Assembly: GCA_045047305.1 (NCBI GenBank)
Contig: JASFYO010000045.1
Location: 1 to 36,311, forward strand
DNA: 36,311 nucleotides
Reading direction: 5' to 3'
DNA from: Planctomycetota bacterium
GTDB lineage: Bacteria; Planctomycetota; UBA1135
Part shown: positions 7,666 to 33,816 of the stretch, one piece after another
How positions within the stretch are numbered: the stretch's first letter is position 1
Layout: every line of letters begins with the position of its first letter
Notes under the pieces: model-generated
The model's input: the letters and a program-made list of their open reading frames with translations, nothing else
Told to the model about the DNA's origin: nothing
Databases searched by the model: none
Translations under genes and position numbers: made by a program

Positions 7666-7679
7666 GTGCCATGCGAGGG

Positions 7680-7688: not shown

Positions 7689-7695
7689 TCCCTCC

Positions 7696-13218: not shown

Positions 13219-13704
13219 ATGCGCGTCTTCCGACTCCAAGTCAACGGCGATACCGTCGAGGTTGCGGCCCCCGAACATTGGACCTTGCTCGAGGTCCTAC
13301 GTTACAAAATGGGCTTGACCGGATCCAAGCAAGGTTGCGATAAAGGCGATTGTGGCGCCTGTACGGTGCTCATGGACGGCGTTCCGACACTAGCCTGTCT
13401 TAGCTTGGCTGCGACTTCCGAAAGCCACGCCATCACCACCATCGAGGGCTTGCTCCCTGCGCATCGCGCCAACGGCGGCGAGGGTGCCGATCCAGTGCAA
13501 GATGCTTTTGACCGCTGCGGTGCTTTGCAATGCGGTTTTTGTCAGCCCGGCATGATCCTTTCTGCAAAGGCTCTGTTGGCGAAGAATCCAGACCCAAGCG
13601 CAAAGGAGATCAAGGATTCCCTGTCCGGTAATTTGTGTCGCTGCACAGGCTACACCCAGATTTACGAAGCCGTGGTGCTCGCTGCAAAGGGAGAACAAGT
13701 CTGA
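13219..13704 (+). CDS. hcrC: 2x[2Fe-2S] small subunit, xanthine oxidase family (4-hydroxybenzoyl-CoA reductase gamma-like)
   Basis: GSKQGCDKGDCGACTV..C and QCGFC...NLCRCTGY; TGATG overlap with the next gene. Confidence 0.8.
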   Translation: MRVFRLQVNGDTVEVAAPEHWTLLEVLRYKMGLTGSKQGCDKGDCGACTVLMDGVPTLACLSLAATSESHAITTIEGLLPAHRANGGEGADPVQDAFDRCGALQCGFCQPGMILSAKALLAKNPDPSAKEIKDSLSGNLCRCTGYTQIYEAVVLAAKGEQV

Positions 13705-17184: not shown

Positions 17185-19059
17185 ATGTCTTTGACCATTG
17201 CCATCCTTGCGGCATCTGCACTAGCTGCACCGCAAACCATTACACCCGACCAGCAGCATGAAAAGCTCCAGGAGCTAGAGCTGCATCAACTTATTGAGAA
17301 CGCGCCTGTGGGGGAACGAATTCATGTCGATTTGGTTTTCCGTACCCAGCCAAACTTCGAGGCCTTAAAACTGGAGCTCGGGCCAATGCCGGAAAGTGAT
17401 TTACCTTTCGCATTGCGTGACCGCGCGCTTGAAATCTGCACGCCAGAACAAGCCGCTGCACTTACTCTTTTGCGCAGTTATGAAAAGCAAGGCTTGGCCG
17501 ACCTGATTGCACCGCTGTGGTTGACCAACGTGGTTGGCGTTCGCACCACCGCCGATGTCATCCTCGAGCTCGCTGACCTTGAGGAAATCGCTTACATCCA
17601 TTACGACCCACCGCGCGAAGGAACTTTGCTTTCCACCACAGCTGGTGGAGTACCCACCTGCGACCAATTGACCATCGGCTCTCCTTTCGCGTGGAATCGG
17701 ATGAATGCAACTGGCCAAGGCATGGTGGTAGCGGTGATTGATACCGGCTCGTGTTACACCCACCCCGACATTGCTAATCAGGTCTGGGTGAACCCAGGAG
17801 AAGATCTTGGCGGCGATGGCATCGTTTGGGATCCTGCTGACCAAAACGGTATCGATGACGATGGCAACGGCTACGTCGACGACCTCATCGGATTTTCCTT
17901 TGATTTCACTGCACCTGGCAGCAATGACCCAATGGACCACCAAACGCATGGCACGCACACTTCTGGAACTGTAATTGGTAATGGCGCCAGTGGCATACAA
18001 ACTGGTGTAGCTCCAGGCGCGAAACTCATGCCTATCCGCACCTCCACTCAGATTTCTCAGGAGATCGAAGTTTGGCAAAGCATGCAGTACGCGGCACTCA
18101 TGAACGCCGACGTCATTTCCATGAGTCTCGGGTGGTGGCATTCTTGGAATCCAGACCGCGCACTTTGGCGCACCAACTGCATAAATACTCAAGCGATGGG
18201 CACCATGATGGTGATTGCAGCAGGCAACGAAGGCAACTTTTCCTCGACCGATAATGTGCGCACTCCTGGAGACGTACCCGAGGTGACCACAGTAGGTGCT
18301 ACCGATTGCAACGACAATGCAGCATCCTTCAGCTCGGTTGGCCCTGTCACTTGGACCGGAGTTGCTGGATACAACGACTTCCCATTCCCACCGGGATTGG
18401 TCAAGCCAAACGTCAGTGCTCCGGGTGTAAACACCACCTCCACATTGCCTTGTAACGGCTACCAAAGCCTTTCCGGCACCTCCATGTCCACCCCACACGT
18501 TGCAGGCGTTGCTGCATTGTTGCGTTCCCTGCGCCCAGACTTGAGTATCAATGAAGTACGCGATGCTTTGATGAGCACTGCCGTCGACCTTGGCGCGGTT
18601 GGCATGGACAACCAATACGGTGCAGGCCGTGTTGATGTCCCAGCATTACTTAACGCCTATGCTCCATTACGCGCAGACAACTACAGCATCAGTGCAGCCA
18701 CTGGCGGTGTAGTGACCTTAACTCTGGAAGCGAGTGTGGCGCGTGCAGGCCAAAACTACTGGGTCCTTGCCTCAGGCTCTGGAAACGAACCGGGTATCGT
18801 GTTCGCTGGCGGATCCGTCTTGCCATTGAATCAGGATTCCGTGTACAGCTTGTCCATCGCACGTACCAATACTGCGGAGTTTGCAAACAGCAAAGGCACC
18901 CTGGATAGCGCTGGTATGGCAACTACAACCATTACCATCGCTCCGGCATCCTTGCCAGCGGGCGCTGCAGGCCAGGTGCTTTCCTTCGCCTATGCAACCG
19001 TCTCCGGAGGCGCAATCGTCTACACCTCGAACCCGGTCAATCTAAGCATTCAGCCTTAG
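17185..19059 (+). CDS. Secreted S8 (subtilisin-like) serine peptidase with a C-terminal beta-rich domain
   Basis: Signal peptide and propeptide, catalytic triad motifs VIDTG, HGTH and GTSMSTPHVAG, oxyanion AAGNEG, and an NGIDDDGNGYVDD insert. AGGA Shine-Dalgarno upstream. Confidence 0.93.
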   Translation: MSLTIAILAASALAAPQTITPDQQHEKLQELELHQLIENAPVGERIHVDLVFRTQPNFEALKLELGPMPESDLPFALRDRALEICTPEQAAALTLLRSYEKQGLADLIAPLWLTNVVGVRTTADVILELADLEEIAYIHYDPPREGTLLSTTAGGVPTCDQLTIGSPFAWNRMNATGQGMVVAVIDTGSCYTHPDIANQVWVNPGEDLGGDGIVWDPADQNGIDDDGNGYVDDLIGFSFDFTAPGSNDPMDHQTHGTHTSGTVIGNGASGIQTGVAPGAKLMPIRTSTQISQEIEVWQSMQYAALMNADVISMSLGWWHSWNPDRALWRTNCINTQAMGTMMVIAAGNEGNFSSTDNVRTPGDVPEVTTVGATDCNDNAASFSSVGPVTWTGVAGYNDFPFPPGLVKPNVSAPGVNTTSTLPCNGYQSLSGTSMSTPHVAGVAALLRSLRPDLSINEVRDALMSTAVDLGAVGMDNQYGAGRVDVPALLNAYAPLRADNYSISAATGGVVTLTLEASVARAGQNYWVLASGSGNEPGIVFAGGSVLPLNQDSVYSLSIARTNTAEFANSKGTLDSAGMATTTITIAPASLPAGAAGQVLSFAYATVSGGAIVYTSNPVNLSIQP

Positions 19060-19068
19060 AGCTATCAC

Positions 19069-19554
19069 TTACACCCAACCCGCCAACAAGGTTTCAGCCT
19101 GGTTGGCGGGTTGTTTCGTTTCTATCGCCTGCTCCACTACACCATGCACTCCGAGAACAAAGGTGTAGCGTTGCGCGTACTGGTCGCGTGCCTCCCCAAC
19201 AGCGCCAAAGGCTAGGCTCATGCTTCCATCTAAATCCGATAGCAGTGGGAAGGGAAAGCCCTGCTTGGTGCGAAAATCCTTGTTGTCCTTTACGCAGTCC
19301 ATGGAAACGCCCATGACCAAAATGTCTAGGGCATCAAATTGTTGGATTCGATCACGGAACCCTTGACCTTGTTTCGTTCAGCCTGGGGTGCTGGCCTTGG
19401 GGAAGAACCAAAGCACGACTCGTTTTCCAGCAAGGTGAGCCTGCGTCACCACTTCGCCTTCGGTGTCTAGTGCGGTGAACGCTGGGCATTTTGACCCCAC
19501 GCGGAGTGGGCCAGGATTCCCTTTTAGGAGACGACGGAAAAAGGTACGCAACAT
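19069..19554 (-). CDS. bcp: BCP/PrxQ peroxiredoxin, predicted selenoprotein (Sec59)
   Basis: Translated by hand from ATG 19554: ...GKRVVLWFFPKASTPG[TGA]TKQGQGFRD...VMGVSMD...FPFPLLSD...QRYTFV. The TGA at 19380-19378 is in frame at the peroxidatic Cys of PxxxTxxC, and the frame is open on both sides (161 aa). Confidence 0.88.
19076..19122 (+). terminator. Strong hairpin inside the 3' end of bcp, likely terminator for the convergent S8 gene
   Basis: Perfect 12-bp inverted repeat CAACCCGCCAAC/GTTGGCGGGTTG plus AGG/CCT, followed by TTTCGTTTC. Confidence 0.6.
19350..19368 (-). promoter_or_regulatory. Candidate bacterial SECIS element
   Basis: GGUCAAG-GGUU-CCGUGAUC begins 9 nt 3' of the UGA. GGUCA/UGAUC forms a stem, with a G-containing apical loop about 16 nt from the UGA. 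Confidence 0.55.
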
Positions 19555-19558
19555 ATTC

Positions 19559-19987
19559 TTAACACCCTGAATTGTTTTTCTTGACGTGTGCTGACGATGC
19601 CTTGACCAATTGTTTCAAAACCTTGAGGTCGACATCCTTCAAGTGGTTCAGATACAAGCATGACTTACCGGTCCGGTACTTGCCCAACTTTTCCATAAGC
19701 GTGGAATAGCGTGGGAAACCAGCCATGATATATAACACCAACTTTGCTTTCCGTGGCGCAAACCCAGTAAGGAACCAGCTGCCTTCGCGGCCGCTCGCAT
19801 AACGATAATCATAACGCCCAAAGCCAACCATACTTGTTCCCCACATTTCTGCAGGCTCGCCGGTGATGTCTTGCATCAACTCCAAAACGGCAAACGCGTC
19901 CTCGCGACGTGAGTCGCATTCAACCCTATTCAAAAAGGCCTTTACACTTGCCTTGGTCGGCTTGGTCTTGTTCTCTGCTCGTGCCAT
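19559..19987 (-). CDS. DUF1801 (YdhG-like) domain protein
   Basis: MWGTSMVGFGRYDY.YASGREG.W...GFAPRK...LGKYRTGKSCLYL; ends 4 nt upstream of bcp on the same strand. Confidence 0.88.
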   Translation of the reverse strand: MARAENKTKPTKASVKAFLNRVECDSRREDAFAVLELMQDITGEPAEMWGTSMVGFGRYDYRYASGREGSWFLTGFAPRKAKLVLYIMAGFPRYSTLMEKLGKYRTGKSCLYLNHLKDVDLKVLKQLVKASSAHVKKNNSGC

Positions 19988-20010
19988 GCAGCACTAACAT
20001 ACCACTCGCC
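19988..20010. promoter_or_regulatory. 23-bp spacer with overlapping, divergent -10 boxes
   Basis: Plus strand: TAACAT (19995-20000) 10 nt before ATG 20011. Minus strand: TG-G-TATGTT (hexamer 20001-19996) 8 nt before ATG 19987. Confidence 0.55.
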
Positions 20011-20631
20011 ATGAAAACCGACACCACCATTCTCTATCTTGCTGACCCAATGTGCTCATGGTGTTGGGGATTCGCCCCCAGCCTGAAGGCGATACAAGCA
20101 ATCGCTCCCCAAGTTCCAGTGCAGATTGTTCTAGGCGGTTTGGCACCCGACTCCGAAGAACCGATGGAAGCCAGCCTGAAATGCTATATCCAACAGGCCT
20201 GGCGCGATGTCGCTGCGCAGTGTGATGTGGAATTCAACTTCGACTTCTGGGAGCGGTGCTCGCCTCGGCGGTCCACTTACCCTGCATGTCGAGCGGTCGT
20301 GGTGGCTCGAATGTTCAATTTAGAAATGTCTATGTTCCAGTCGATCCAACACGCTTACTACTTAGAGGCGCGCAACCCTTCGGATTTAAATGTACTCGTC
20401 GAAATCGCGGTTACCCTTGGAATTCCGAAGCAGGAATTCCTTGACCACATGATGTTGGAGCAAACCCAGCAAGCGCTTGAAGCCGACTTCCAATTGCGCA
20501 ACCAACTTCACGGCCACTCCTTTCCTAGTATTGGGGTGCGTCGTCAGGGCGCAACACATCTATTGCACAGTGGCTACTGCAGCCCTGACGAAGCAACGCA
20601 AATATGGCGCTTATGGGATGGTCACATCTAA
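20011..20631 (+). CDS. DsbA/FrnE-like thioredoxin-fold protein
   Basis: DPMCSWCWGF, LGGLAPD, RSTYPACRAV and the cis-Pro motif SFPS. Start corrected to ATG 20011. Confidence 0.9.
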   Translation: MKTDTTILYLADPMCSWCWGFAPSLKAIQAIAPQVPVQIVLGGLAPDSEEPMEASLKCYIQQAWRDVAAQCDVEFNFDFWERCSPRRSTYPACRAVVVARMFNLEMSMFQSIQHAYYLEARNPSDLNVLVEIAVTLGIPKQEFLDHMMLEQTQQALEADFQLRNQLHGHSFPSIGVRRQGATHLLHSGYCSPDEATQIWRLWDGHI

Positions 20632-23244
20632 GCCATTGGAGAATGTCTGAGAAGCAACATCAAAGGCATGAAACCAGACACTAACACCGGAGGATCCTGC
20701 CGATAGCAGCTTGGTTGCAGTTGCATTTCCGCTTTCATCCACCACACCGTTCGCAAGGGAATGGATTGGTGCCGAGAGCATCATGTCGCCGAGCGAAGAT
20801 GGTGTTGGGCCGGCACCGGTTAAGGAGTAGCCCCACAAAACCGTTCCACCAGGCGTGCAGCGATTGATTGCCAACTCTGCGTTTTGCCCAGCAGTCAAAT
20901 TCCCAATCGTGAGCACCGGCACCATCCAATCCAACAGCGCTTGATATTTTGGTGCGCTTGCAGCTGGTTGGTCTTGATATTCCAAGGTCCCCCACGAACC
21001 AAACTTACCCCAGCTCCCTACATAACTGAAATGCACAAAGAGAGAAACACCTTCCCGTTGCAACATATCTAAATACTCTAGGTATCGCGTGCCCATACGC
21101 ACATCTCCATTGGCCTCCATCAAAAGGTTGGTAAGGGTTTCGTCGTTCTGGGCCGAAGAAAGCCCAGTAAAGTGCTGTCCCCCTTCATAACAAATCAGAG
21201 TCACGCCCTGTTCGTTTGCGATTTGTTTTTGTGTGCGCACAAAGCCTTCTTGCTCCGCAATAGATCTAACCGCAACATCTTCCAGTAATACGCTTACCGT
21301 TGGATAACTATTCACCAGAGGCGGAAGTTCGTTCGGAGTATAATTTTTGCCGAAATACGGTGCGATCGCAAGCGCATCTGGCATCACATATTCCGGATTC
21401 AAGTCTGCGTTATTCAATGCTTCGAAGCGAACTTCTGTGGTTGTAGGATTCGCCGAATGAGTGGCCAATACCTTGACAATGCGGGCATCATTTATAAATT
21501 CCTGCTCGAAGATGGTCCAGATTTCAACCGACCGCACGGCATGATACATCTGGCCCGCACGCCAACGATCCGTTGACAGGCCAAGTGCCATTCCCATATC
21601 CTGAACATAAGCGGATTGACTAAATATCCCGTTCCATGTTTCATTGGAATACTCCACATAGATTTTCTTATCCAAACTAATCTGGTCGCGCAACAAACGT
21701 GCTGCCTCCCGAATGTATTCGTCGTCCGCAGCGTGTGGGATACAAATCCATGGGTCTTGCCCAGAGATGCGCGAGAAATCCACTACATAGTCTAATGACG
21801 CACCGTTCGGAGTTGCCTGACTGAAGAAATCCTTCTTGGTGTGGTCAGCCCAGGTCACCACGGGCGAGTTGTTCGTACCACTCCAATCCATAAATCGAGC
21901 AGTCCCAAAAGGCATCAAGCGCTCGAGGTACACGGAGTCAAAAGGGTCAGTCTCATAAGTCGATGCGAACCCAGGGCGAATAATGCGAATATTGTTCAAT
22001 GGATCCGCGGCCAAGGATTCTTCCAACTCGATAAAGAGGTTGGTCCCTGCATCACTTTGCGGAACCGTAAAGCTAAAGGTAGACGATCCGCCAACAGGGT
22101 AAAAGGTCTGCCGAGTGAGGCCCGCGCGCAGCACGATGCGACCGGAACCTTCCACCAGCAATGTATATTCTCCAGGGACGCGGAGAGACACTAAGTTATG
22201 CGCATAGTGCAACCCGCCATCACTCGCGAGAAAAGGCAATTCCAATGGCCAACCATTTTCATCCACCGGCATCTCGGCGCCAAAGCCTGTATCCCACGTG
22301 CTTGGATCAGACTCTAACTTGGTTAACCACGGTCGCGCCGTGACCATAACGTTCACAAAGTCCCGAGCAGTATTCCAATCTCGAATCGAGTTTAGGTTCA
22401 TACCTAGCTCCATATGCGTGGTCGAGTTTTCCTGAAACTCGCCCTCAATCAAAAAATCCTGGTTCATCACAATCGTGCGCGGGTTCCCTTTTCCGACAAC
22501 ATCACCGCTCCACCCTGCAAACGCGTGCCCAACCTCTGGATTAGCAAAGATTTGCACCTTGGTTCCAGCTTCAAACAAATCACCGTCGGGAAATGTGGAC
22601 ACCTGTCCACCACTCATTTGATTTAGATTTAAAGTAAAAACTGGACCCCCATCGACAATCTTCAGAGCCGTCAGCGAAGTGGGATGGTTGTATTGCGCAT
22701 CGTGAGCAACCAGGCGGAACTCCACAGGACCGGTAATCCCGTCGAAGCCATCTAGAGGAAAAATAAAACCGTATTCCGCATCTTCATAGTTTTCGCGGGC
22801 GAGGCCAGGAATCTCAAATAACTCCTGGCCCTCCAAAAACCCATCTAAGCTTGAAAACAAACTGTACTTTGTCGGCGCCCAATAATTGAGGCGCTGCACT
22901 CCCAGAATCATTTTCTGCCCTCCAAGGTTTAAAGATCCTACCGTTGGCGTAAGGCTAAAGGTTAGAAACTCGTTTTCTGCAATAGCGTCGGCCAAAGTGC
23001 TGGGACCGTTACTTGGAGATACGTGATATACAAAGCAATCGGAATATCCACCGTTGGCTCCCGCACCTAAGCCAAAGTCGATGCCAGAGAACAATAAGTC
23101 CGGCGCTAAATAAGTGGTGGCGTCAAACGGCGTGTTCAGTGAGGGGTCGACGCCACGGAAATCAACTTGGAGAGTGTCTTGTTGGGATGTAGCAGTCGAT
23201 GTAAGGGAAAGTGTTAGGAGAGTAATGAGCGGTAGCAACCTCAT
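20611..23244 (-). CDS. Secreted multidomain protein: one N-terminal beta domain, an InlB-B-like repeat, a GH-A-like TIM barrel and a C-terminal domain
   Basis: Signal peptide from ATG 23244, ANPEVGHAFAGWSGD repeat, ARFMDW, PWICIPH, YVEYSNETWN (acid/base-like) and CYEGGQH (nucleophile-like). Confidence 0.8.
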   Translation of the reverse strand: MRLLPLITLLTLSLTSTATSQQDTLQVDFRGVDPSLNTPFDATTYLAPDLLFSGIDFGLGAGANGGYSDCFVYHVSPSNGPSTLADAIAENEFLTFSLTPTVGSLNLGGQKMILGVQRLNYWAPTKYSLFSSLDGFLEGQELFEIPGLARENYEDAEYGFIFPLDGFDGITGPVEFRLVAHDAQYNHPTSLTALKIVDGGPVFTLNLNQMSGGQVSTFPDGDLFEAGTKVQIFANPEVGHAFAGWSGDVVGKGNPRTIVMNQDFLIEGEFQENSTTHMELGMNLNSIRDWNTARDFVNVMVTARPWLTKLESDPSTWDTGFGAEMPVDENGWPLELPFLASDGGLHYAHNLVSLRVPGEYTLLVEGSGRIVLRAGLTRQTFYPVGGSSTFSFTVPQSDAGTNLFIELEESLAADPLNNIRIIRPGFASTYETDPFDSVYLERLMPFGTARFMDWSGTNNSPVVTWADHTKKDFFSQATPNGASLDYVVDFSRISGQDPWICIPHAADDEYIREAARLLRDQISLDKKIYVEYSNETWNGIFSQSAYVQDMGMALGLSTDRWRAGQMYHAVRSVEIWTIFEQEFINDARIVKVLATHSANPTTTEVRFEALNNADLNPEYVMPDALAIAPYFGKNYTPNELPPLVNSYPTVSVLLEDVAVRSIAEQEGFVRTQKQIANEQGVTLICYEGGQHFTGLSSAQNDETLTNLLMEANGDVRMGTRYLEYLDMLQREGVSLFVHFSYVGSWGKFGSWGTLEYQDQPAASAPKYQALLDWMVPVLTIGNLTAGQNAELAINRCTPGGTVLWGYSLTGAGPTPSSLGDMMLSAPIHSLANGVVDESGNATATKLLSAGSSGVSVWFHAFDVASQTFSNGLDVTIP

Positions 23245-23357
23245 GCTGCATCGACGGCGAGAAAGACAGAAAACTACATGGTCTTTTCCCGGCATGCAAA
23301 ATATGTTCTCCAGAATTCATTCAAGAAGGGGGCAGCCGCTATAGGAATGAGGCAGAC

Positions 23358-23575
23358 ATGAATGGCTACCACTGCTCTCCGGAGTTTCCGCAGCCATTCT
23401 TGAGTATGGCCTCGCAAAAGAACTTCATCGCACCTTCCAGCTGGGCAATATCTGCATCCGTTTTAAAAAAATGGACACCATTCCTTACGCGCTAGCTGGC
23501 GACCTAGTCACCAAAATGAGCGCGGGGGAAAGGATTCAGTTATACAATAAAAACGTAAAGGAAACTCTGATTTAG
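23358..23575 (+). pseudogene. Degraded DUF1801-family gene remnant
   Basis: 23358-23432 translates to MNGYHCSPEFPQPFLSMASQKNFIA. In another frame, 23441-23575 gives LGNICIRFKKMDTIPYALAGDLVTKMSAGERIQLYNKNVKETLI*. These resemble the GYHC.P..PLPF..LASQKN.I and MGKSCIRFKK...IP..LIG.L blocks of a DUF1801 subfamily. Confidence 0.7.
23552..23575 (+). repeat. Dispersed IS5-end-like motif (copy 2)
   Basis: AACGTAAAGGAAACTCTGATTTAG is 21/24 identical to 3123-3146. Confidence 0.55.
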
Positions 23576-23582
23576 TCTTGAG

Positions 23583-26500
23583 CTAGGGCAGCAAGAAAGT
23601 CAGACCGTTCGAGAAGCTTTGCGAATCGACGTCAAAGGCGTGGTACCAAACTCGAGCGCCCGTAAGTCCTGGAGGCAAAGCTTGGGTAGTACGTACAATG
23701 CCATCTGAACCTGCTTGCATACGCGGCATCAAAAAGAACGGCGCTGTTAATAAGAGCTCGCCAATCCCAATTTGAGTCGGTCCCCCGCCAGTGGCGGAGA
23801 AGCCCCAAGTCACCGGTCCGCCCGGCGTGCAGCGACTAATTTCAAAATCACCCGTTTGACCCGGGATAAGATTACCAACCTTGAGTACAGGGGTCTGCCA
23901 GTCGACCAAAGCACGGTACTTGTGCGCCAAACTGATTGGTTGTTCTTGCGATTCCTTCGAGCCCCAAGACCCAAACTTATTCCATGCGCCAATATAAGTG
24001 AAATGGCTGAAGACACTAACCCCTTCACTCTGCAGCATGTCCAAGTAAGTCCGGTAAAGCTCGCCGATGCGCGGGTCGCGGTTTACTGCGACCAAAATAT
24101 CGGTGAGAATTTGATCATCCCGAGTTTGATTGAGGCCAACGTAATGCTGACCGCCTTCGTAACAGATCAACTCTGCTCCCTGGCGTAAGGCCGCCAACTT
24201 TTGGCTGCGCACTTCAAGCTTCACCTCTTGAATAGATGACGGGCCGACGACGTCAAGTAAGTCATCTACGGTTGGATAGCTCGGGGCGATTGGAGGGATT
24301 TCTTCCGGCTTAATACTGTGCCCAAAATAAGGCGCAATCGCCAATGCATCTAGCATGACGTAATTCGGGTTGATCTCCGGGTCGTTCAACGCATCTAGAC
24401 GAGTCTGAGTCGTACCAATCAACACCGAATGCGTCCCAAGCACTTTCACTAGGCGATTGTTATTGACGAACTCCTGCTCAAAAATGGTCCAAATCTGAAC
24501 CGAACGCAAACTGACATAACGCTGCCCGGCCTCCCAACGATCCGTCGACAAGCCAAGCAATAAACCCTGATCCTCTGCGTAACCAGTTTGCTGAAAACTT
24601 CCATTCCAAGTCTCATTGGAATACTCGACGTAAATCTTCAAGCTCGGGTCCACGTTATCACGCAATAACCGGGCGGCCTCGCGGACGTAGTTGTCATCGG
24701 CCATGTGCGGAATGCAAATCCAAGGGTCTGCATGCGTGGCATTGGCAAACTCAGCCATGTACTGCAAAGATGCTCCTCGTAAAGTAGCTTGCGAGTAATG
24801 GTCCTTGGAAACGTGGTCGGCCCAGCTCGTGACTAGGGAGTTGTTGATCTCACCCCAGTTCATAAAGCGAACGGAGCTGAATGGCGCCAAGCCCGCTAAG
24901 TAATCCGGATGGAATGGTTGCGTAGCCACCACCGATGCAAAGCCTGGGCGAATCACGCGAAGACTCGTAATCGGGTCGGCTGCAGAAGATTCCTCTAGCA
25001 TGAGGAACATATTGTTCACCGCATCTGGCACCGGAACGACGAAGGTATAGGTGGAGCTTCCGCCAGTTGGGTTGTAAGTTTGGCGAGTCTGGCCCGCGAT
25101 TAACTCAAAACGGCCGCTGCCTTCAACCTCAACGGTATACGTCCCCGCGCTACGCAAAGCCAAAAGGGTATGCACATAATGCAGGTTGCCATCACTCGCC
25201 GTAAACGGAAGATGGGTTGGCCAACCATTTTGGTCCATTGGAATTTCATCTCCGAATCCACTATCCCAAAGACCTGAGAAAAAATCCCGTGTCAACCAGG
25301 GGCGCGCCGTCTCCATGATGTCGACGAAATCGAACTTAGGGCCGAAATCGCGCACCGCACCGAGGTTCATTCCAAGCTCCATGTTCGGCAAGGGGACAGA
25401 CTCAAAGTTCCCCGTAATCATTAGGTTGCGGTCCAGGATGACGGTTCTTGGATTGCCGCGCCCAACCACATCGCCAGTCCATCCGCTAAAACGGAAGCCA
25501 TCGTTCGGGTCTGCAATAAGCTGAACCGCACTCCCAGTTTCAAAGTAACTACCATAAGGGTTAGAACGCACTTGTCCGCCATACTGCGCTCCAAGGGTGA
25601 GAGAATACACCGGACCTGGGTCAATGATGCTCAGTTTGGTCAGGGTAGTGTCGTGATTGTATTTCGCGCTATGAGCCACCAAGCGAAACTCCACACTACT
25701 AGTGATGCCGTCATACCCGGATGGAGGGAAAATGAACCCAAAGTCATTCTCGGTGTAATCTGTGCGCTCGACAGCTTCGGTGCTGAATAATTCCTTGCCG
25801 ACGGTGAAGCCATCAATACTGCTGAATAGTGAATAGACTGCCGGCGCCCAATGATCAGTGCGCTGGATACTGAATTGAATTTTCTGACCACCAAGATTCA
25901 TGACTCCCGAAGTTGGCGCCAAGGAAAAGGACAGATACTCATCGGCAAGTACGGCATCGCGCAGCGTCGTTTCAATCGCTGGAGCGGCAAGGTGAAAAGC
26001 AAAGACATCCTGAAAGCCTGGAGTAGGAAAGCAGCCTAGCCCTAAATCGACTCCCGCAAAGGAAAGATTCGGTTGCAGCGCCGTAGTTGCAGTCCACGGG
26101 GTGTTAAGCGCGGGGTTCGTGCCGCGAAAATCTACATCCAACATGTCTGGCGAATAGATTGGGCCAGGATCCGTGATGCTTAACTCAGTAAGACTTAAGT
26201 CATGGTTGTAGCGCGCACCAAATGCGACCAAGCGAAATTCAACCGGACCTGTAACGCTGTTATAGCCCGTAGTTGGAATGGTAAAGAGGAACCTGGTTTC
26301 GTTGTAATCGGTGTTGCCAAAGGATGGCGTAGTGAAGATTTCTTGGCCACTCGCAAAACCATCAATACTGGTGAACACACTGTAGGTCACTGGCGACCAA
26401 TAGTTGCCGCGCTCGATACTGAAGACTAGATCTTTCCCACCAAGGTCCAAGAAACCCGTTGTGGGTGCCAAGGTAAACGACAAATATTCTTCATCACGGA

Positions 26501-26759
26501 TCGCGTCTTGCAACGAAGTATCGATGCTCGCCGCCGTGAGATGGAACGCATAGACGTCGTTAAAACCGGGACTGGCAAAAGCGCCTGCGCCAAAATCCAG
26601 ACCACTGAAGGAAAGGTTAGGTGCTAGGTAGGTGGTAGAAGTCCACGGCGACTGCAATGCCGGATCGACTCCTTGGAAATTGACTTCCAAAACGTCTTGG
26701 GCAAATGCGGTGAGGGGGCACCAAAGGAACAACCATGCAATGAGGGGGATGTGTCTCAT
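23583..26759 (-). CDS. Secreted multidomain GH-A-like protein, paralog of 20611-23244 with a duplicated N-terminal domain
   Basis: Signal peptide from ATG 26759, two ~180-aa repeats (LEVNFQGVDPAL.. and LDVDFRGTNPAL..), ADPNDGFRFSGWTGD, VRFMNW, PWICIPH, YVEYSNETWN, CYEGGQH and the same C-terminal domain. Confidence 0.8.
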   Translation of the reverse strand: MRHIPLIAWLFLWCPLTAFAQDVLEVNFQGVDPALQSPWTSTTYLAPNLSFSGLDFGAGAFASPGFNDVYAFHLTAASIDTSLQDAIRDEEYLSFTLAPTTGFLDLGGKDLVFSIERGNYWSPVTYSVFTSIDGFASGQEIFTTPSFGNTDYNETRFLFTIPTTGYNSVTGPVEFRLVAFGARYNHDLSLTELSITDPGPIYSPDMLDVDFRGTNPALNTPWTATTALQPNLSFAGVDLGLGCFPTPGFQDVFAFHLAAPAIETTLRDAVLADEYLSFSLAPTSGVMNLGGQKIQFSIQRTDHWAPAVYSLFSSIDGFTVGKELFSTEAVERTDYTENDFGFIFPPSGYDGITSSVEFRLVAHSAKYNHDTTLTKLSIIDPGPVYSLTLGAQYGGQVRSNPYGSYFETGSAVQLIADPNDGFRFSGWTGDVVGRGNPRTVILDRNLMITGNFESVPLPNMELGMNLGAVRDFGPKFDFVDIMETARPWLTRDFFSGLWDSGFGDEIPMDQNGWPTHLPFTASDGNLHYVHTLLALRSAGTYTVEVEGSGRFELIAGQTRQTYNPTGGSSTYTFVVPVPDAVNNMFLMLEESSAADPITSLRVIRPGFASVVATQPFHPDYLAGLAPFSSVRFMNWGEINNSLVTSWADHVSKDHYSQATLRGASLQYMAEFANATHADPWICIPHMADDNYVREAARLLRDNVDPSLKIYVEYSNETWNGSFQQTGYAEDQGLLLGLSTDRWEAGQRYVSLRSVQIWTIFEQEFVNNNRLVKVLGTHSVLIGTTQTRLDALNDPEINPNYVMLDALAIAPYFGHSIKPEEIPPIAPSYPTVDDLLDVVGPSSIQEVKLEVRSQKLAALRQGAELICYEGGQHYVGLNQTRDDQILTDILVAVNRDPRIGELYRTYLDMLQSEGVSVFSHFTYIGAWNKFGSWGSKESQEQPISLAHKYRALVDWQTPVLKVGNLIPGQTGDFEISRCTPGGPVTWGFSATGGGPTQIGIGELLLTAPFFLMPRMQAGSDGIVRTTQALPPGLTGARVWYHAFDVDSQSFSNGLTFLLP

Positions 26760-26938
26760 CGGGCCATTAAGATAACCTCGGCCCCCTGTTTGACCAAAAT
26801 CCACAGTCGTATTTTTTGCAGTTATTATGCAGAAAAATGAGGAACTTGAGGTCTTAAATGGCGTCATCAAGCTCTATTCGAGGATGCGGGCAGTAGGCCC
26901 TTGGATGTCGTCTCGGTCTCCTCTATCCTTACACCCCA

Positions 26939-27673
26939 ATGCCGCTGCTTCGCAAGCTCAAAACCGCCCTCCTCATGGCTCTACGTATTCCGTTTCACGC
27001 GGCAATGCATCCCCGCCTAGTCTGGCGGCGTTACGTACAAAAGCGTTGCGTGGTTGGCGCCATTCCATATCAGCTCCGTTTGCACAATCGTTATTGGGAG
27101 AAACGCCTAGGAGTAGACACTGAGGGCTGGGTCGCTGTCGAGCTGAACGACGGCATGCTTTACGAAGCTACGCCCTATCTACTATTAGAAGACATTCTTT
27201 GCTATTTAAATTTGGGTAAGAACGATGTCTTCCTCGACCTTGGGTGCGGTAAAGGCCGTGTGACCTGCATGGCTGCGCGCACCAAGGTCGGACGTGTTGT
27301 AGGTCTCGAACAGGACGACGGATTCCTCGAACTCGCGCGCCGTAATTTGGCCGCCGTCGCCGACGTCCGCTCTAAAGTCGACTTTCATCACGGATTGGCG
27401 CAAGACTTTGACTTTGATAGCACCACGGTGGTCTTCCTCTTCAATCCCTTCGGCGCCGACACCCTACAAGAAGTGTTAGAGCTCTTGCAGCAAAGCCTAT
27501 TGCGCATCCCCCGAAAGTTGCGCCTGGTTTACGCCAACCCTGTGCATGAACAGGTGCTCCACGACTGCGCCTGGCTCAGCAACGTGGAAACCTGGCCCAG
27601 CAGCGCATACGCCGAGTTCGAGATCCAGCCACCAAATCCGCGGCTGGTCTCATTCTGGGAATCGAAGGCGTAA
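26939..27673 (+). CDS. Class I SAM-dependent methyltransferase
   Basis: YEATPY, FLDLGCGKGR, GLE, FLFNPF and YANP; TATCCT 9 nt upstream of the ATG. Confidence 0.88.
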   Translation: MPLLRKLKTALLMALRIPFHAAMHPRLVWRRYVQKRCVVGAIPYQLRLHNRYWEKRLGVDTEGWVAVELNDGMLYEATPYLLLEDILCYLNLGKNDVFLDLGCGKGRVTCMAARTKVGRVVGLEQDDGFLELARRNLAAVADVRSKVDFHHGLAQDFDFDSTTVVFLFNPFGADTLQEVLELLQQSLLRIPRKLRLVYANPVHEQVLHDCAWLSNVETWPSSAYAEFEIQPPNPRLVSFWESKA

Positions 27674-27676
27674 GTC

Positions 27677-30268
27677 TTACTGCCCAACCAGTGCACGCAA
27701 GCCGTGGCTCATCGCCCACCCATTCGGCTGCGATGCATCGCGCATGGCGGCTTGCAGGTAACGCTCCACACCGATCAGGGCTGGATTATTCGGAATCAGC
27801 AACGGAGTTGTTGCCACTCCAGACCCATCCGCGACCAAAGTGGCACGGTAAATTTGAGTTGCAGTATCCACCAGGATGTCACCGCCAAGTAGTGGGCTAT
27901 CGTCCGAGGTCGTGCAAACGGAAAGGAATCCCGCGGCTCCTGGTGGAGCTCCACTCACGGTCAAAGTGACACTGGTACCAAGCAGTGGTTGAGCGCTGGA
28001 ACGCAGTTGCAAAGTGTTCGCGCCACTACGCAACTCTCCGTATGGAAAGAAACCTGGTGTTTCCGGGAAGTAGTCCCAAGCGCCGCGACCATAGGTCCCA
28101 AAACGAATAGCGTTACTCGAGGGGACTGCCTCGACCGACCAGTAAGTCGTAATGGGACCAGATCCACCAAGAATGCTGCTCCATTGCTGGGTAGTAGGAT
28201 CGTACTCCCAGGCTCCGTTTTCAGAGCCGGCGTACATACGACCACTGCCATCCGGAGCCTCGACAAGCCCGTAAACCAAGGTTGCGGGAAGCCCGTTGCT
28301 ACGGTCTTGCCAGTTCACACCACCATCGGTGCTCACCATGACTGGGGGGCCGCTGTAGCCTGCACCGGCAACCCACACGGTATCGACATCAGTGGAAGAC
28401 GGAACGATGGTGGTGCCGTAGAAGTAATGCGCGGTCGGTGCGCCACCGCCGGCCGAAGTCCAAGATGTGCCGCCGGTTTGCGAGGTCCACAGGTTTCCGC
28501 CAGTGGTCACGCATACCGCAAAGTTTGGATCAATCTTGGAGAATGCAACTGCCGAGATTTGCTGCCCAAACGGATTGGGATGAAGCGCGCTGTAAGTCCA
28601 ACTGCCGCTGGTGCCAACGCGTTGGTAACGCCAAATCGTTTTTCCGCAAAGGTAAAACACATTATTGTCTACAGGATCCGCGGTTAGGAACGGTAGCCAC
28701 TGCGCATCGAATCCAACTGGAAAATCCACCGTGTACAAGGCGGGGTTCGGCGCATGTGCGGTGACCAAAACGAAGCCTGGGTAATCAGAGTAAACCAAGT
28801 CATGGCTGCCATCACCAGAACTCAGGTGACCATAGTCGCCAGTGATTTCCTCGCGGAAAGTTGCCCATGAACCGGAGCTTCCCGGAATGCCAAGCTCCGA
28901 AGTTTGATACCCCTGATCTTGCGATCCGGCATGTAGGTAATCCGGATTACGTCGACTGGTATGAGTGCTGTAGTACTGACTCACACCCATGCCTGCCCAG
29001 GTCAGCCAGTCGGTGGTGCCGAGCTGGTCGACACTTTCCGACAAGCCACCGTGAGTATTAATGTACCAACGCTCCCCAGAACTCAGACTTGAGTCTGCGA
29101 TAACCGAGACGCCCATGATGTCGGCGTGCAATTTGTGGTGGCGGTTCCCAGGGTGTTCCCACCATGCATTCTGCAAGGTAAAAGTAGTGCCTGCATCGCG
29201 TGAAACCCACATTTCAACCCCGCCGTAGACCACTAAGCTGCTATCTGTAGAAGAAGTGCAGAAGGCGCTCCACATCTCATTCATTGTGTGAGCAAAGGCC
29301 CAACTATTACCCGCATCGGTGGTGCGCCAGAGCTCCCAGCTGCCGCCTTGCTTTACCGCCAAGCTGAAAGTGTTGTTACCCGAAGACTCGTGGCCCCCGA
29401 GGCGAATATCGGTGACATTAAAGCCAATGGAGTTGCCAAGGTTTGCAAAGGTTGTTCCATTGTCGGTCGACTTGTACATGCGATCTTGATCAAACAAGTA
29501 AAGCGCACCTAGGGTGTCGCGTGGAGTGAATAAATCAGATTCTCCATTCAAATTGCGGACGACTGAAAAACTTTGACCACGGTCAGAGGAACGCAACAAC
29601 TTCCATCCGCCTTGCCACACCACAGCCAAAATGGTTTGCGCGCTGTCTTCCAGCTTAATTAAACGACGCACATTGCTGATGCCACTAGTGCCGGAGGGGG
29701 TTTGCCAAGTCACTCCTTGATCCGCACTGCGCCACATCGAGTTCGACGTGGCGCGAAGAATAATGTCGGTGGTTCCGGAAGCTGGTGCGATCACCGCTAA
29801 GTGGTAGGCGCCACCAAAAACGCCGTCACCGATCGCAACCCAATCAGTGCCATCGGCTGGTCCACGGAAAACGCCGCCGCGTGCTGTGCCGACGTAAAGG
29901 TCGTTGCCATTGGTCGAAGGCACCGCAACAAACACACTGCCGGGAAGGTTATTGCTTCCGATTTCATTCCAGCGCCCGGTGGTTGGGGCACGAGAAAGCA
30001 GGGCATCTTCGCGTCGCGCCATAGCTGCTAAAACATTAGCCTCCTCCTGCGCCTCCCAATCAAAGCCCGGGGCGGCACGGTGCATCGACTCAATCCACTC
30101 CTGCCGTTCGGCATAACTTTCACCACCTTCTTCGAAGCCTGCGGGGCGCGGAAGAGGTGGGGAGTAGCCACTATCGAAATCAATCGGTGGGACGGGGGCT
30201 GTGGCACATGCTGTCCACAGAAAACATCCGCCGAGGGCAAGGGCGGTACAAAAACGGCTAGGGACCAT
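27677..30268 (-). CDS. Large BNR/VPS10-like beta-propeller lipoprotein with a C-terminal domain
   Basis: Lipobox-like WTAC, many Asp-boxes (SADQGVTW, SSDRGQSF, STDNGTTF, TTDAGNSW, SRDAGTTF, STDGGVNW), LHAD, GSQDQG and GTYGRGAW. Confidence 0.85.
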   Translation of the reverse strand: MVPSRFCTALALGGCFLWTACATAPVPPIDFDSGYSPPLPRPAGFEEGGESYAERQEWIESMHRAAPGFDWEAQEEANVLAAMARREDALLSRAPTTGRWNEIGSNNLPGSVFVAVPSTNGNDLYVGTARGGVFRGPADGTDWVAIGDGVFGGAYHLAVIAPASGTTDIILRATSNSMWRSADQGVTWQTPSGTSGISNVRRLIKLEDSAQTILAVVWQGGWKLLRSSDRGQSFSVVRNLNGESDLFTPRDTLGALYLFDQDRMYKSTDNGTTFANLGNSIGFNVTDIRLGGHESSGNNTFSLAVKQGGSWELWRTTDAGNSWAFAHTMNEMWSAFCTSSTDSSLVVYGGVEMWVSRDAGTTFTLQNAWWEHPGNRHHKLHADIMGVSVIADSSLSSGERWYINTHGGLSESVDQLGTTDWLTWAGMGVSQYYSTHTSRRNPDYLHAGSQDQGYQTSELGIPGSSGSWATFREEITGDYGHLSSGDGSHDLVYSDYPGFVLVTAHAPNPALYTVDFPVGFDAQWLPFLTADPVDNNVFYLCGKTIWRYQRVGTSGSWTYSALHPNPFGQQISAVAFSKIDPNFAVCVTTGGNLWTSQTGGTSWTSAGGGAPTAHYFYGTTIVPSSTDVDTVWVAGAGYSGPPVMVSTDGGVNWQDRSNGLPATLVYGLVEAPDGSGRMYAGSENGAWEYDPTTQQWSSILGGSGPITTYWSVEAVPSSNAIRFGTYGRGAWDYFPETPGFFPYGELRSGANTLQLRSSAQPLLGTSVTLTVSGAPPGAAGFLSVCTTSDDSPLLGGDILVDTATQIYRATLVADGSGVATTPLLIPNNPALIGVERYLQAAMRDASQPNGWAMSHGLRALVGQ

Positions 30269-30274
30269 CTTCTA

Positions 30275-30280
30275 AGCATA
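30275..30280 (-). promoter_or_regulatory. -10 box TATGCT, leaderless-type promoter
   Basis: Lies 6 nt before ATG 30268. Confidence 0.5.
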
Positions 30281-30365
30281 CTCCATGAGCAAAAAGATGT
30301 CCGTAATCCCAGAAGAACCAATCCCAGATAATCGGGTTCCGCCACTGTTCGCCCCAAGCAACATC

Positions 30366-32030
30366 ATGAAAAGAACCTTAATTCTGACCCTACTTTTCCC
30401 AGTCGTCTGGGCAAGCAACCTCGCTGCAGCACCTCAAGGCGGCCCTCTGCCGCCACCACTCGCGCCGGCGCAGAACCCTGTCACTCCAGAAAAAGCCATT
30501 CTGGGTAAGATTCTCTTCTGGGAGGAGCAGCTTTCTAGCGACGACACCATGGCATGCGGAACCTGCCACGGTGTGCCCGCTGGATTTAGCGATTCGCGTA
30601 TGCGGACCCACCCTGGCAATGATGGTGTGCTCGGTACTCCGGACGACCTCGTCACTTCTCCTGGAGTCATTCGTGCTGCAGACGATGGCACCTATGCTCC
30701 CGACGCGACTTTCGGCCTCAACGCACAACTGACCGGACGCCGCACCCCGGATATTTTTGCTGCACTTTATGCTCCAGAAACTTTTTGGGATGGGCGCGGC
30801 ACCTCCAGCTTCACCGATCCCGAAACTGGAATTCTTCTCATTGCTGCTGGAGCTGCACTCGAGAGTCAAGCCATCGGCCCGATTCTGAGCGATGCCGAGA
30901 TGGCACATGAAAATCGTGATTGGCCCGCAGTGACTGCAAAATTAGCGCAAGCTCGCCCACTCGCGCTGGCCTCCGACCTCACGCCCGACATCGTTGCAGC
31001 ACTCGCCGTTCATGCAAGCTATGCCGAGTTGTTCCGCGCTGCATTCGGCACCACCGACATCACCGCGCAACGCATTGCCTATGCCATCGCCACTTACGAA
31101 CGGACGCTATTCCCTAATCAGAGCCCTTGGGACGCATTTCAATCTGGTGACCTAACTGCACTCACTCCCAACCAAACCGCCGGATGGAATCAGTTTTCAG
31201 GACCTGCCAACTGCACCAACTGCCACACGCCTCCTTTCTTTAGCGACAATCAGTTTCACAACTTGGGCTTACGTCCCTCCGCAGAGGACAATGGTCGCCA
31301 AGGCGTGAGTGGGCTTTTCGCCGACCGTGGAAAATTCAAAACCCCATCCCTGCGTAATGCTGGTTTACGTGAACGCTTCTTTCATAACGGCCAAGCCAAC
31401 GTGCTCAACAACGGCCCGGCTCCCGGTGGCGTCGATGATATCTACATCGCAGGCGGTGGCCCCTTCCCGGACAACCGTGATCCACTTTTAGTTCCGCTCG
31501 CCGGACGCCCTGGCATCAACATGCAGCAGATTATGGATTTCGTCGGCAATGGCCTCACTGACCCGCGCGTGGCCAGTGCACTCCCACCATTCGACAAACC
31601 GACTCTCTACAGTGAATTGCATGCGCAAGGCGCTGACCGCTTCGGATCTTCGAACCCAAGTGGAAGTGGCGTCCATCCACGTCTCATCACTTTGACCCCC
31701 GGGGTCTTGGGAAGTACCTCCTTCAAAATCGGATTGCGGGATGCCCCAATCTCCGCCGCCACCGCCATGTTGGGCATCTCCCGCACCAGTGGCAGCGGGA
31801 CCTTAGTGCGTGGTGTCCCCTTCAACCTTGGCGGGCCCGTAGCTGCCTGGATCGCTGCACCCCTCCAAATCGATGCTGCTGGACGAGGATACGCAACCTT
31901 CCGCTTTGACATTCCAAATCAGAGTTCTTTGGCGGGAATCGACTTCCACGTGCAGGCCTTCATTGAGGATTTCCTCGCCCCAGGCGGCCATGGAGCAGCC
32001 ACTCAAGGCTATTCCTATCAAATGCAATAG
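30366..32030 (+). CDS. Secreted diheme cytochrome c peroxidase (CCP/MauG family) with a C-terminal domain
   Basis: Signal peptide from ATG 30366, LGKILFWEEQLS, heme motifs CGTCH and CTNCH, FWDGR, FHNLG, GKFKTPSLRN and FFHNG. Confidence 0.9.
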   Translation: MKRTLILTLLFPVVWASNLAAAPQGGPLPPPLAPAQNPVTPEKAILGKILFWEEQLSSDDTMACGTCHGVPAGFSDSRMRTHPGNDGVLGTPDDLVTSPGVIRAADDGTYAPDATFGLNAQLTGRRTPDIFAALYAPETFWDGRGTSSFTDPETGILLIAAGAALESQAIGPILSDAEMAHENRDWPAVTAKLAQARPLALASDLTPDIVAALAVHASYAELFRAAFGTTDITAQRIAYAIATYERTLFPNQSPWDAFQSGDLTALTPNQTAGWNQFSGPANCTNCHTPPFFSDNQFHNLGLRPSAEDNGRQGVSGLFADRGKFKTPSLRNAGLRERFFHNGQANVLNNGPAPGGVDDIYIAGGGPFPDNRDPLLVPLAGRPGINMQQIMDFVGNGLTDPRVASALPPFDKPTLYSELHAQGADRFGSSNPSGSGVHPRLITLTPGVLGSTSFKIGLRDAPISAATAMLGISRTSGSGTLVRGVPFNLGGPVAAWIAAPLQIDAAGRGYATFRFDIPNQSSLAGIDFHVQAFIEDFLAPGGHGAATQGYSYQMQ

Positions 32031-32175
32031 GATTCTGCATAGCGAGATTCGCGATTATGAAGTAGGATTTTGAGGAACTCTAAAGCTTCTTGCCCGTCAG
32101 CCTAGTGTGGGGCCCTCTTCGCCGAGAGCCCTTTCATTCCCCCTCCTTAAGAGCCCTCTCTCCCTAAGCTCCCGC

Positions 32176-33816
32176 ATGCGACTCTCCCTGCTTTGTATTT
32201 CTCTATTCGTGGCCGTCTCGTTTGCCGGACAGGCGCACGCTCAGCTCCAACCGCCCCCGGAGCCAGCTCAGAACCCAAGCACACCGGAGAAAATCATTCT
32301 CGGTAAGATACTTTTTTGGGAGGAGCAGCTTTCATCCAACGACACCGTGGCTTGTGGAACCTGCCACATCCCCGCCTTTAGCTTTACCGATAACCGCGAA
32401 TTCGTGCATCCTGGGGATGACGGCCTGGTGGGAACCCTCGACGATTCCATCACCTCCCCTGGAGTCGTGCGCGCCAATGCCACCAAGCAGCTCATTCCTA
32501 CTCCGCTGTTCGGTCTACGTCCGCAACAAACCCGGCGCCGCACCAACGACATTTTCGGCTCTGCTTATCAAACCAAAATTTTCTGGGATGGGCGCGCTGC
32601 AGATCAGTTCCTTAACCCAGAGACCGGTGCCGTAAGTATCCCAACGGGAGGAGCCCTAGAGAGTCAGGCTGTTGAGCCGATTATTTCTGGAGTTGAAATG
32701 GGCCACACGGGGCGCGATTGGCCGCAAGTCATTGCCAAACTAAAAGCTGCCATTCCTCTGCGTATCGCTTCCAACATCCCACCGGATATGGTCAATGCCA
32801 TCGCGCTGGACCCAACTTATCCGGATTTGTTCGCGCGTGCGTTCTCCACTCCGGACATCACTGCGGAGCGCATAGCCTTCGCAATTGCGGCTTATGAACG
32901 CTCCTTAGTGCCCGACCAAACGCCATATGATGAGCACATGCGTGGTGTTCCCAACGCGATGACACCACAGCAAATAGATGGAATGAATCAGTTCTTAGGC
33001 ATTGCCAACTGCTACATGTGCCACGCCCCACCCATATTCTCGGACGGGGATTTCCACAACAACGGGCTCCGCCCTACGCTTTGGGATGGTGGGCTACAGG
33101 ACACCACCAATGATGTGAATGACCGTGGAAAATTCAAAACGCCTTCCCTTCGCAATGCTGGCCTGCGCACGAGCTTCTACCACAATGGTTTTTTTCAAGG
33201 CCTATGGCCTCAAGGCGTGAGCAACCTCTACTGGGGCGGCGGCGGTGGATTCTTCGATAACCGTGATCCTTTGTTGGTTCCACTAAGCACCGTACCTGGA
33301 ATTAACTTAGAACATATTTTCAATGATTTCGTTGGCACTGCCTTGACTGACCCGCGAGTTGCAAATGAGACCTTTCCGTTCGATCGCCCAACCTTGTACT
33401 CCAACTTACATCCCTTTAGCTCCAACCTTTATGGCCCATTCAATCCGGGCGCAACTGGGGTAGAGCCTAGGATTACGGCGCACATGCCGGCCATTTTGGG
33501 CCACAACTTCCAAGTGGGAGTCAGCCAAGTACTAGGTGGTTCCATGGCTCACTTTGGAGCCTCTGGCGCTGCAGGATCCGGCCTCATGCGCGGCGGGCGC
33601 TTGATTAATATCTCGCTTCCGATTTTGCAGTTCTTCAGCTTGCCAACTCATGGAAGCGGGCCTGACGGTGGATGGCAATCGATTACCATTGCCCTGCCAA
33701 CCAGCCCAAACCTCATTGGCCGTAACTTCTACATGCAATGGTGGGTGGACGATTTAGGTGCTCCTGGTGGAGTCGTGTCGGCAACCCAAGGCGCCATCAT
33801 CGAAATCCTTCCCTAA
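32176..33816 (+). CDS. Secreted diheme cytochrome c peroxidase (CCP/MauG family), tandem paralog
   Basis: Signal peptide from ATG 32176 (TAAGCT 5 nt upstream), CGTCH and CYMCH, FWDGR, GKFKTPSLRN and FYHNG. Confidence 0.9.
   Translation: MRLSLLCISLFVAVSFAGQAHAQLQPPPEPAQNPSTPEKIILGKILFWEEQLSSNDTVACGTCHIPAFSFTDNREFVHPGDDGLVGTLDDSITSPGVVRANATKQLIPTPLFGLRPQQTRRRTNDIFGSAYQTKIFWDGRAADQFLNPETGAVSIPTGGALESQAVEPIISGVEMGHTGRDWPQVIAKLKAAIPLRIASNIPPDMVNAIALDPTYPDLFARAFSTPDITAERIAFAIAAYERSLVPDQTPYDEHMRGVPNAMTPQQIDGMNQFLGIANCYMCHAPPIFSDGDFHNNGLRPTLWDGGLQDTTNDVNDRGKFKTPSLRNAGLRTSFYHNGFFQGLWPQGVSNLYWGGGGGFFDNRDPLLVPLSTVPGINLEHIFNDFVGTALTDPRVANETFPFDRPTLYSNLHPFSSNLYGPFNPGATGVEPRITAHMPAILGHNFQVGVSQVLGGSMAHFGASGAAGSGLMRGGRLINISLPILQFFSLPTHGSGPDGGWQSITIALPTSPNLIGRNFYMQWWVDDLGAPGGVVSATQGAIIEILP

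Follow-up and report, generated by a model that had tools for sequence, protein, structure and literature searches.

A recurrent C-terminal domain on exported proteins of Planctomycetota as a candidate envelope-sorting tag

Why should exported proteins of unrelated families, encoded within one stretch of DNA, end in the same kind of tail? The question is raised by a contig of 36,311 nucleotides from a Planctomycetota bacterium of the UBA1135 lineage (assembly GCA_045047305.1, contig JASFYO010000045.1), which was analyzed over its full length and is called the window here. It encodes an S8 subtilase, two glycoside hydrolase-like proteins (GH1 and GH2), a BNR/Vps10-type propeller lipoprotein and two di-haem CCP/MauG-family proteins (CCP1 and CCP2), each of which ends in a Gly/Pro-rich module. 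The initial annotation, made from the sequence of the window, took these tails for a lineage-restricted sorting or surface-addressing domain with its machinery encoded elsewhere. Here, we report that, judged from sequence comparison, the six tails are copies of one domain that is absent from the catalogues and that is very probably an envelope-sorting tag of some kind.

A shared terminal domain in the window, the genome and the phylum

All six open reading frames (ORFs) are present on the implied strands in the ORF calls of the window, and each of the six proteins ends 6-7 residues past an S/T-x-G/P motif, in agreement with the initial annotation. Pairwise comparison with phmmer gave E ≤1e-4 only for pairs within a family and for BNR-CCP pairs, and the S8 and GH tails had no match to the tails of other families; taken by itself it fails to unite the six tails and was rejected as a proof of their kinship. 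The relationship comes from profiles. An iterative profile search, seeded with five of the window tails, settled at about 70 ORFs in the genome that holds the window (G000). A profile from 57 tails outside the window, a training set that came from this seeded search and is thus partly dependent on the window, matches all six window tails with independent E-values (iE) of 7e-17 to 2e-6; the best reversed-ORF decoy reached 0.13, and leave-one-out searches recovered 60 of 63 tails. The S8 tail, initially seen as the most divergent copy, turned out to belong to a longer subtype that is also present on other genes, and its score with the non-window profile is better than those of the BNR and CCP tails.

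At iE <1e-3 the domain is found in 71 ORFs of the 2.8 Mb genome, 67 of them closed and four cut by contig ends, and its carriers make up about 3% of the 2,225 called genes. It is 110-135 aa long and terminal in 66 of the 67 closed ORFs, three of these being short remnants of 62-79 aa. The position had been described as strictly terminal, which nearly all of these ORFs bear out, but a minority of copies are N-terminal or in tandem. Two copies stand directly after a signal peptide (C2:62355, followed by a Kelch propeller, and C87:13429, cut by a contig end). A profile search among 1.84 billion representatives gave 9,208 clusters (50% identity) at E 0.001, a count that contains noise, as 4 of the best 150 are repeat proteins without a full domain; the best 146 genuine representatives comprise 132 with one terminal copy, 10 with tandem copies reaching the terminus and 4 with a non-terminal copy. 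Below the counting threshold, divergent tail-like ends were seen on low-charge exported proteins of G000 (C4:20108-21931, C79:1215-2855, C81:4630-7011 and C3:79576-81186). A 408-aa exported protein of the same genome (C37:18908-20134) has no tail, and no split tail was seen downstream of it; it shares 43% identity with a 715-aa protein of a distant carrier, G179, that does bear one.

High copy numbers are a property of the relatives as well: 20 of 21 close genomes hold 23-96 matches. A genome of the same order, G015, has zero, and among its 12 S8 and three choice-of-anchor-B-like loci, the five ORFs that reached a stop in-locus all lack the domain; a neighbouring ORF has a dockerin-like tail at its end. 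Among 251 sampled Planctomycetota, with at most 18 candidates scored per genome, at least three matches occur in 51 genomes, one in 3 and none in 197. In G179, 25 ORFs match (iE <0.01), all near their C-termini. The domain also occurs on a protein of the cultured Engelhardtia mirabilis, and this puts the family in or close to the 'Saltatorellus' clade. A search of 61 genomes from the phylum of a Saprospiraceae genome, made with no positive control, did not find the domain. No published description was found in the literature searched, supplements being outside its scope; in the main texts of bioRxiv 10.1101/817700, bioRxiv 10.64898/2026.10.26.761892 and PMC11131199, as far as these were accessible, the term 'C-terminal' is absent.

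Fold, cargo and exchange of the tail

AlphaFold2, run on 46 tails, returned an all-beta sandwich (predicted local distance difference test, pLDDT, 88), and the domain is predicted to be Ig-like (immunoglobulin-like). Its closest structures are macroglobulin-type and other Ig domains (best Z 9.7-9.9). Type IX secretion system (T9SS) C-terminal domains (CTDs) score Z 7.7-8.0, inside the range of generic Ig domains, which do equally well or better than the PorU chain (Z 7.9, root-mean-square deviation 3.0, 93 aligned) and the mirolase CTD (Z 7.7, root-mean-square deviation 2.3, 77 aligned). The 46 tails gave no family match in Pfam or NCBIfam and the PDB sequence search likewise gave none; all 30 nearest clusters in the ESM Atlas lack a name, and the best profile likeness is a weak one to an enediyne apoprotein (E 0.002). 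With hhalign, the probability was 0.1% against three T9SS CTD sequences, a tiny reference set, and 0.3% against 43 verrucomicrobial-type tails, in both cases like reversed controls. Carbohydrate-binding module models had no match among the tails, which have one Tyr column at 64% and no Trp column; the conserved columns are largely Gly/Pro/Ala, and the overall composition is D/E 5.5%, K/R 3.3% and Trp+Tyr 3.1%. A terminal transmembrane helix was borderline in one of 66 tails (hydropathy 1.6) and two K/R among the last 6 aa occurred in one of 66. The early judgement that the tails are neither PEP-CTERM signals nor T9SS CTDs is borne out by these counts, and 0 of 46 tails match TIGR04183 or PF18962 at E up to 1.

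The proteins that carry the domain are largely predicted to be exported. A signal peptide is predicted by a strict heuristic in 56 of 67 carriers compared to 503 of 1831 other genes, and by a loose one in 66 of 67 against a background of 907/1825. The motif [AGS]Q follows the hydrophobic stretch in 46 of 67 carriers versus 148 of 1831 other genes. Among signal-positive proteins Gln is likewise concentrated on carriers (46/56 vs 148/503), a pattern outside Bacteroidota that resembles the Bacteroidetes Q-rule of a Gln at the mature N-terminus, as given in the accessible part of its description (PMC5837995). The passengers contain 7.2% K+R+E (n=60) compared to 16.6% in other signal-bearing proteins (n=456), a low charge that we read as a likely extracellular signature. 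Among 36 carriers scanned with Pfam, 11 had no match and the others include FG-GAP, Kelch, BNR and PD40 propellers, S8, M10, M14 and M28 peptidases, glucose/sorbosone dehydrogenases, cupredoxins, C-type lectins and ASPIC proteins. Choice-of-anchor families, which are defined by interchangeable sorting tails, are also among the passengers, namely B (171.5 bits, cut-off 100) and J (30.7 bits, cut-off 30).

Exchange of the tail was followed at the junction of GH1, for which 120 listed homologs (of 901 found) of the catalytic part were cut at the domain end and their tails sorted by single-linkage clustering, with at most seven rows viewed per cluster. Another tail of about 85 aa follows in 40 of them, a dockerin-like tail in 21, the present domain in 17, a peptide of 15-21 residues in about 16, and nothing in about 10. 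Among named loci the present domain occurs in 4 of 79, all Planctomycetota, the dockerin-like tails belong to Pirellulales and Sedimentisphaerales, where NF041540 matches only under its cut-off, and the ~85-aa tail belongs to Verrucomicrobiota and relatives, while TIGR04183 is found above cut-off directly after the GH1-type junction in L126 and L134 (Bacteroidetes and Melioribacteraceae records). This distribution indicates that the tail behaves as an exchangeable module chosen by lineage and not by passenger. Four homologs have a long-subtype tail that is nearest to the window S8 tail; GH1 itself has the short subtype. Altogether the hydrolase family shows at least six terminal tail types (L066-L144, P0172-P0290). 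The ~85-aa verrucomicrobial tail (L077) has no NCBIfam match, the short peptides include IFANGFE, PVxLSxF/WxxE and VxDWxLY, and both could represent additional sorting tags not yet described. A proposal that tail-less loci are confined to monoderms was dropped: in seven Chloroflexota loci the protein stops at the catalytic domain, and the same is true of loci of Gemmataceae, Bryobacterales and other diderms.

Candidate machinery and partners

The dedicated machinery that the initial annotation had placed elsewhere in the genome was not identified. SprA and PorV were found in 0 of 3 carriers, one of them a single-contig genome, with 2/2 control genomes positive; exosortase was found in G000 and G161 and not in G052 and G179 (90% and 86% complete). 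A FadL-like barrel beside the gene with the N-terminal domain occurs in 7/60 genomes and a TIGR04219-like barrel in 6/60, including the tail-less G015, and both were rejected. The 180 flanking genes of carriers contain no recurring neighbour family beyond small paralog sets. Type II secretion system (T2SS) genes are present: G000 encodes gspD-E-F-G and three more pseudopilin genes (C21:51162-58826), with a GspG over the TIGR01710 cut-off (98.6 vs 88.85 bits). At E 1e-15, 26 of 31 carriers have GspG-like genes, and the remaining five have weaker matches, which in four of the five lie about 3.5 kb downstream of the best GspD-type secretin. At C2:79810-84567 of G000 a tail-bearing gene adjoins a possible GspK-like gene, named by eye, and a short lipoprotein secretin. 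The genome, which has no T9SS, also encodes a signal-bearing 742-aa protein with a weak partial Peptidase_C25 match (C84:15657-17885, L045).

A candidate partner of another kind emerged from a comparison of G000 with 2.0 Mb of G179 (a genome of about 2.4 Mb), which gave 675 reciprocal best matches; the machinery screen covers this part of a single distant carrier plus 43 proteins put through a Pfam scan. The candidate is a 1,050-residue lipoprotein, unnamed in the ESM Atlas, that ends in YWRQ in 83 of 120 homologs. Its model (pLDDT 88) has the archaeal surface-layer propeller 1l0q as top Foldseek match, and it is possibly a surface-layer protein. It is present in 53 of 56 carriers, with one full and two weak partial matches in 79 non-carriers (30 of which were searched with a single protein, which is less sensitive) and 0/3 in single-hit genomes. 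This association exceeds that of control shared proteins (19/31 carriers vs 1/30 non-carriers for one, 27/31 vs 21/30 for another), but the carriers are kin and not independent, and four genomes are discordant: G015 has the lipoprotein without tails, and G017, G224 and G266 have tails without a lipoprotein match.

The coordinates of the six window genes, their tails and the lipoprotein are given in Table 1; the profile envelopes themselves run over 18652-19053 for S8, 27683-28033 for BNR and 33448-33810 for CCP2, and coincide with the tabulated positions for the other three tails. In a homolog alignment the hydrolase domain of GH1 has invariant N-E and E residues, which we take to be those of glycoside-hydrolase clan A, suggesting a retaining glycoside hydrolase; GH1 and GH2 belong to a wide family that lacks a Pfam catalytic model and a PDB sequence match. 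The lipoprotein Cys of the BNR protein is retained in 10/10 homologs shown, and the tail is present in it as well. Other genes of the window, named by eye from their translations, include a molybdenum hydroxylase (xanthine dehydrogenase-like) operon of three genes that lies immediately upstream of the S8 gene (13219-17056) and, in one run at 7666-11101, phosphoserine phosphatase-like, aminotransferase and phosphoglycerate dehydrogenase-like genes (serine pathway). A DsbA-like gene (19909-20631) and a class I methyltransferase gene (26939-27673) are convergent with GH1 and the BNR gene; no connection to the tails was seen.

Table 1. Coordinates of the tail-bearing genes, their terminal domains and the candidate lipoprotein (window positions unless a contig is named).
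Feature	Position	Strand	Basis
S8 subtilase, Sec signal peptide, terminal domain of long subtype	17185..19059	+	PF00082, E 1.8e-54
S8 terminal domain, long subtype, insertion of ~15-20 aa	18652..19056	+	profile envelope
GH-like protein 1 (GH1), 877 aa from the ATG preceding the signal peptide	20611..23244	-	Flg_new_2 repeat, unclassified hydrolase domain, terminal domain
GH1 terminal domain, short subtype	20614..20940	-	profile envelope
GH-like protein 2 (GH2), 1058 aa, GH1 paralog	23583..26759	-	sequence comparison
GH2 terminal domain, short subtype	23586..23915	-	profile envelope
BNR/Vps10-type propeller lipoprotein with terminal domain	27677..30268	-	PF15902; lipoprotein Cys conserved
BNR terminal domain, all-beta Ig-like sandwich in the model, pLDDT 88	27680..28033	-	profile envelope and model
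CCP1, di-haem CCP/MauG-family protein 1, two CxxCH	30366..32030	+	PF03150; start inferred at the ATG preceding the signal peptide
CCP1 terminal domain	31659..32027	+	profile envelope
CCP2, di-haem CCP/MauG-family protein 2, two CxxCH	32176..33816	+	PF03150; start inferred at the ATG preceding the signal peptide
CCP2 terminal domain	33448..33813	+	profile envelope
Low-charge lipoprotein, 1,050 aa (P0292)	G000 C83:13439-16465 (L062:5443-8466)	-	Ig-like, Big_5, YncE/YVTN propeller

Export address, docking module or accessory domain

Of the initial proposal, a lineage-restricted sorting or surface-addressing function is well supported: the domain has about 70 copies, occurs with signal peptides and on choice-of-anchor B and J passengers, and is exchanged at one junction with a T9SS CTD and dockerin-like tails. 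No dedicated machinery came to light: both barrel candidates failed, and the likely route, a type II system, also exists in Planctomycetota without the domain. As to how such a tag would work, we infer, tentatively and at somewhat below an even chance, that the cargo cross the outer membrane as folded proteins, with the tail as an uncleaved export address that is read by the gspDEFG type II system. Cargo would enter the periplasm by their heuristically predicted N-terminal signal peptides, mostly with a Gln after the likely cleavage site, and would fold there. Haem attachment to CxxCH proteins takes place in the periplasm by an established pathway, and the two CxxCH proteins would receive their haem at this stage. 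The gspDEFG machine, whose genes are present, may then recognize the folded tail, which would be retained on the cargo; it is probably uncleaved because N-terminal and tandem copies occur. The BNR protein and other lipidated cargo would stay tethered to the surface.

A precedent for this reading exists in the Ig/Fn3 signals of T2SS substrates (Vibrio VesB Ig-fold, Dickeya PelI and Pectobacterium Pel3 Fn3), in which, according to the parts of the two sources available, an Ig-like domain on a folded periplasmic protein holds transferable export information (PMC12369372; PMC7949064); the VesB Ig-fold sends beta-lactamase out via the T2SS (PMC12369372, in part). The likeness is drawn from the Ig-like fold and the role, not from sequence homology. 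VesB-type signals, as far as the same sources go, serve a single substrate and are read by the GspC-PDZ, whereas here about 65 proteins are capped and GspC is undetected. Several observations weigh against a type II address. Known T2SS signals are characterized as composite and specific to their substrates, and not as a single portable domain, in the accessible part of a text that calls T2SS substrate choice unresolved (PMC7949064). The GspD of G000 scores below the TIGR02517 cut-off (294.7 vs 351.35). The presence of type II genes is not tied to that of the domain: GspG-like genes also occur in 25/30 non-carriers, and secretins in 61/61 genomes, in numbers that do not separate carriers from non-carriers. 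GspC (PF11356) was found in 0/5 Planctomycetota (four carriers and G015), with positive controls. GspC may often be too divergent for the PF11356 model. In addition, many diderm GH1 homologs lack any tail, and tandem copies in 11 of the top 146 representatives are compatible with docking too.

Docking is the strong rival because of these tandem copies, the dockerin-like swaps and the lipoprotein: the domain would be a non-covalent, dockerin-like module that holds exported proteins on a surface scaffold, for which the YWRQ lipoprotein is the best candidate. We consider this possible but on the whole doubtful. N-terminal copies would suit it, as do the dockerin-like tails that take the same junction in Pirellulales and Sedimentisphaerales, the near-restriction of the lipoprotein to carriers and its likeness to a surface-layer propeller. 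The restriction is weakened by the kinship of the carriers, in which an unrelated shared protein is also enriched, and by the four discordant genomes; distant lipoprotein matches often span the propeller only, the product of one, mostly single-copy gene would need to bind from 40 to several hundred kinds of cargo, and a lipid-anchored cargo, the BNR protein, retains its tail. Dockerin type I (PF00404) and the GC-type dockerin (NF041540) of other Planctomycetota share the terminal slot and the passengers and can be tandem, unlike which the present tail is all-beta in its model, has only 5.5% Asp/Glu and gave no dockerin model match in 46 tails. We favour export over docking because a proven translocation signal uses this slot as well, because the lipoprotein cargo keeps its tail and because an Ig-fold precedent exists in the T2SS, although the two functions are not mutually exclusive.

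A dedicated translocon or sortase that has so far gone unrecognized, a counterpart of the T9SS in this clade with the tail as its signal, is improbable. The many-or-none distribution by family would fit it, as would the Gln at the mature N-terminus and an Ig-like fold, tied with generic Ig domains, as in T9SS CTDs. Type A CTDs of the T9SS are likewise terminal Ig-like sandwiches on many unrelated Sec-exported proteins (CTD architecture in the available part of PMC11285876), at the same junction of the same hydrolase and often with Gln after the signal peptide, but they measure ~72-80 aa. Neither their profile models nor SprA and PorV were found here, exosortase is missing from two of four carriers, and no candidate barrel tracks the domain; the machinery screen spans ~2.0 of 2.4 Mb of one distant carrier. 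T9SS CTDs are cleaved and their cargo attached to a surface glycolipid; N-terminal and tandem copies argue against such cleavage, and N-terminal copies cannot be sortase substrates. PEP-CTERM/exosortase and GlyGly-CTERM/rhombosortase systems also label exported proteins in many copies per genome, though by tails with a terminal transmembrane helix and basic end that are lacking here. Least probable of all is a ligand-binding or stabilizing accessory module (carbohydrate-binding or spacer Ig) with no sorting role, for which the generic Ig/macroglobulin-type fold, the enediyne apoprotein likeness and the Gly/Pro/Ala columns might speak. Such a role sits poorly with a single copy in 135/146 representatives and a terminal position in 142/146, with the low Trp+Tyr content, with the capping of cupredoxins, haem proteins, peptidases and propellers alike, and with the fact that the domain fills the slot of a T9SS CTD. 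The domain works like a T9SS CTD or a dockerin as a slot-filler and is a member of neither family.

If the favoured export reading is right, a single graftable domain on about 3% of the proteome would make type II substrate choice directly testable. A wider picture, which we offer as speculative, is that one portable Ig-like domain serves a large Planctomycetota branch as a genome-wide type II label on tens to hundreds of exoproteins. The other tails at the same junction, namely the dockerin-like ones, the ~85-aa verrucomicrobial one and the short peptides, would then be additional lineage labels in a modular code for type II substrate choice. Whatever the route, the profile describes a family of about 9,200 clusters, undescribed in the libraries searched, and picks out the probable exoproteome of a clade that is abundant and mostly uncultured, with Engelhardtia mirabilis as a cultured member.

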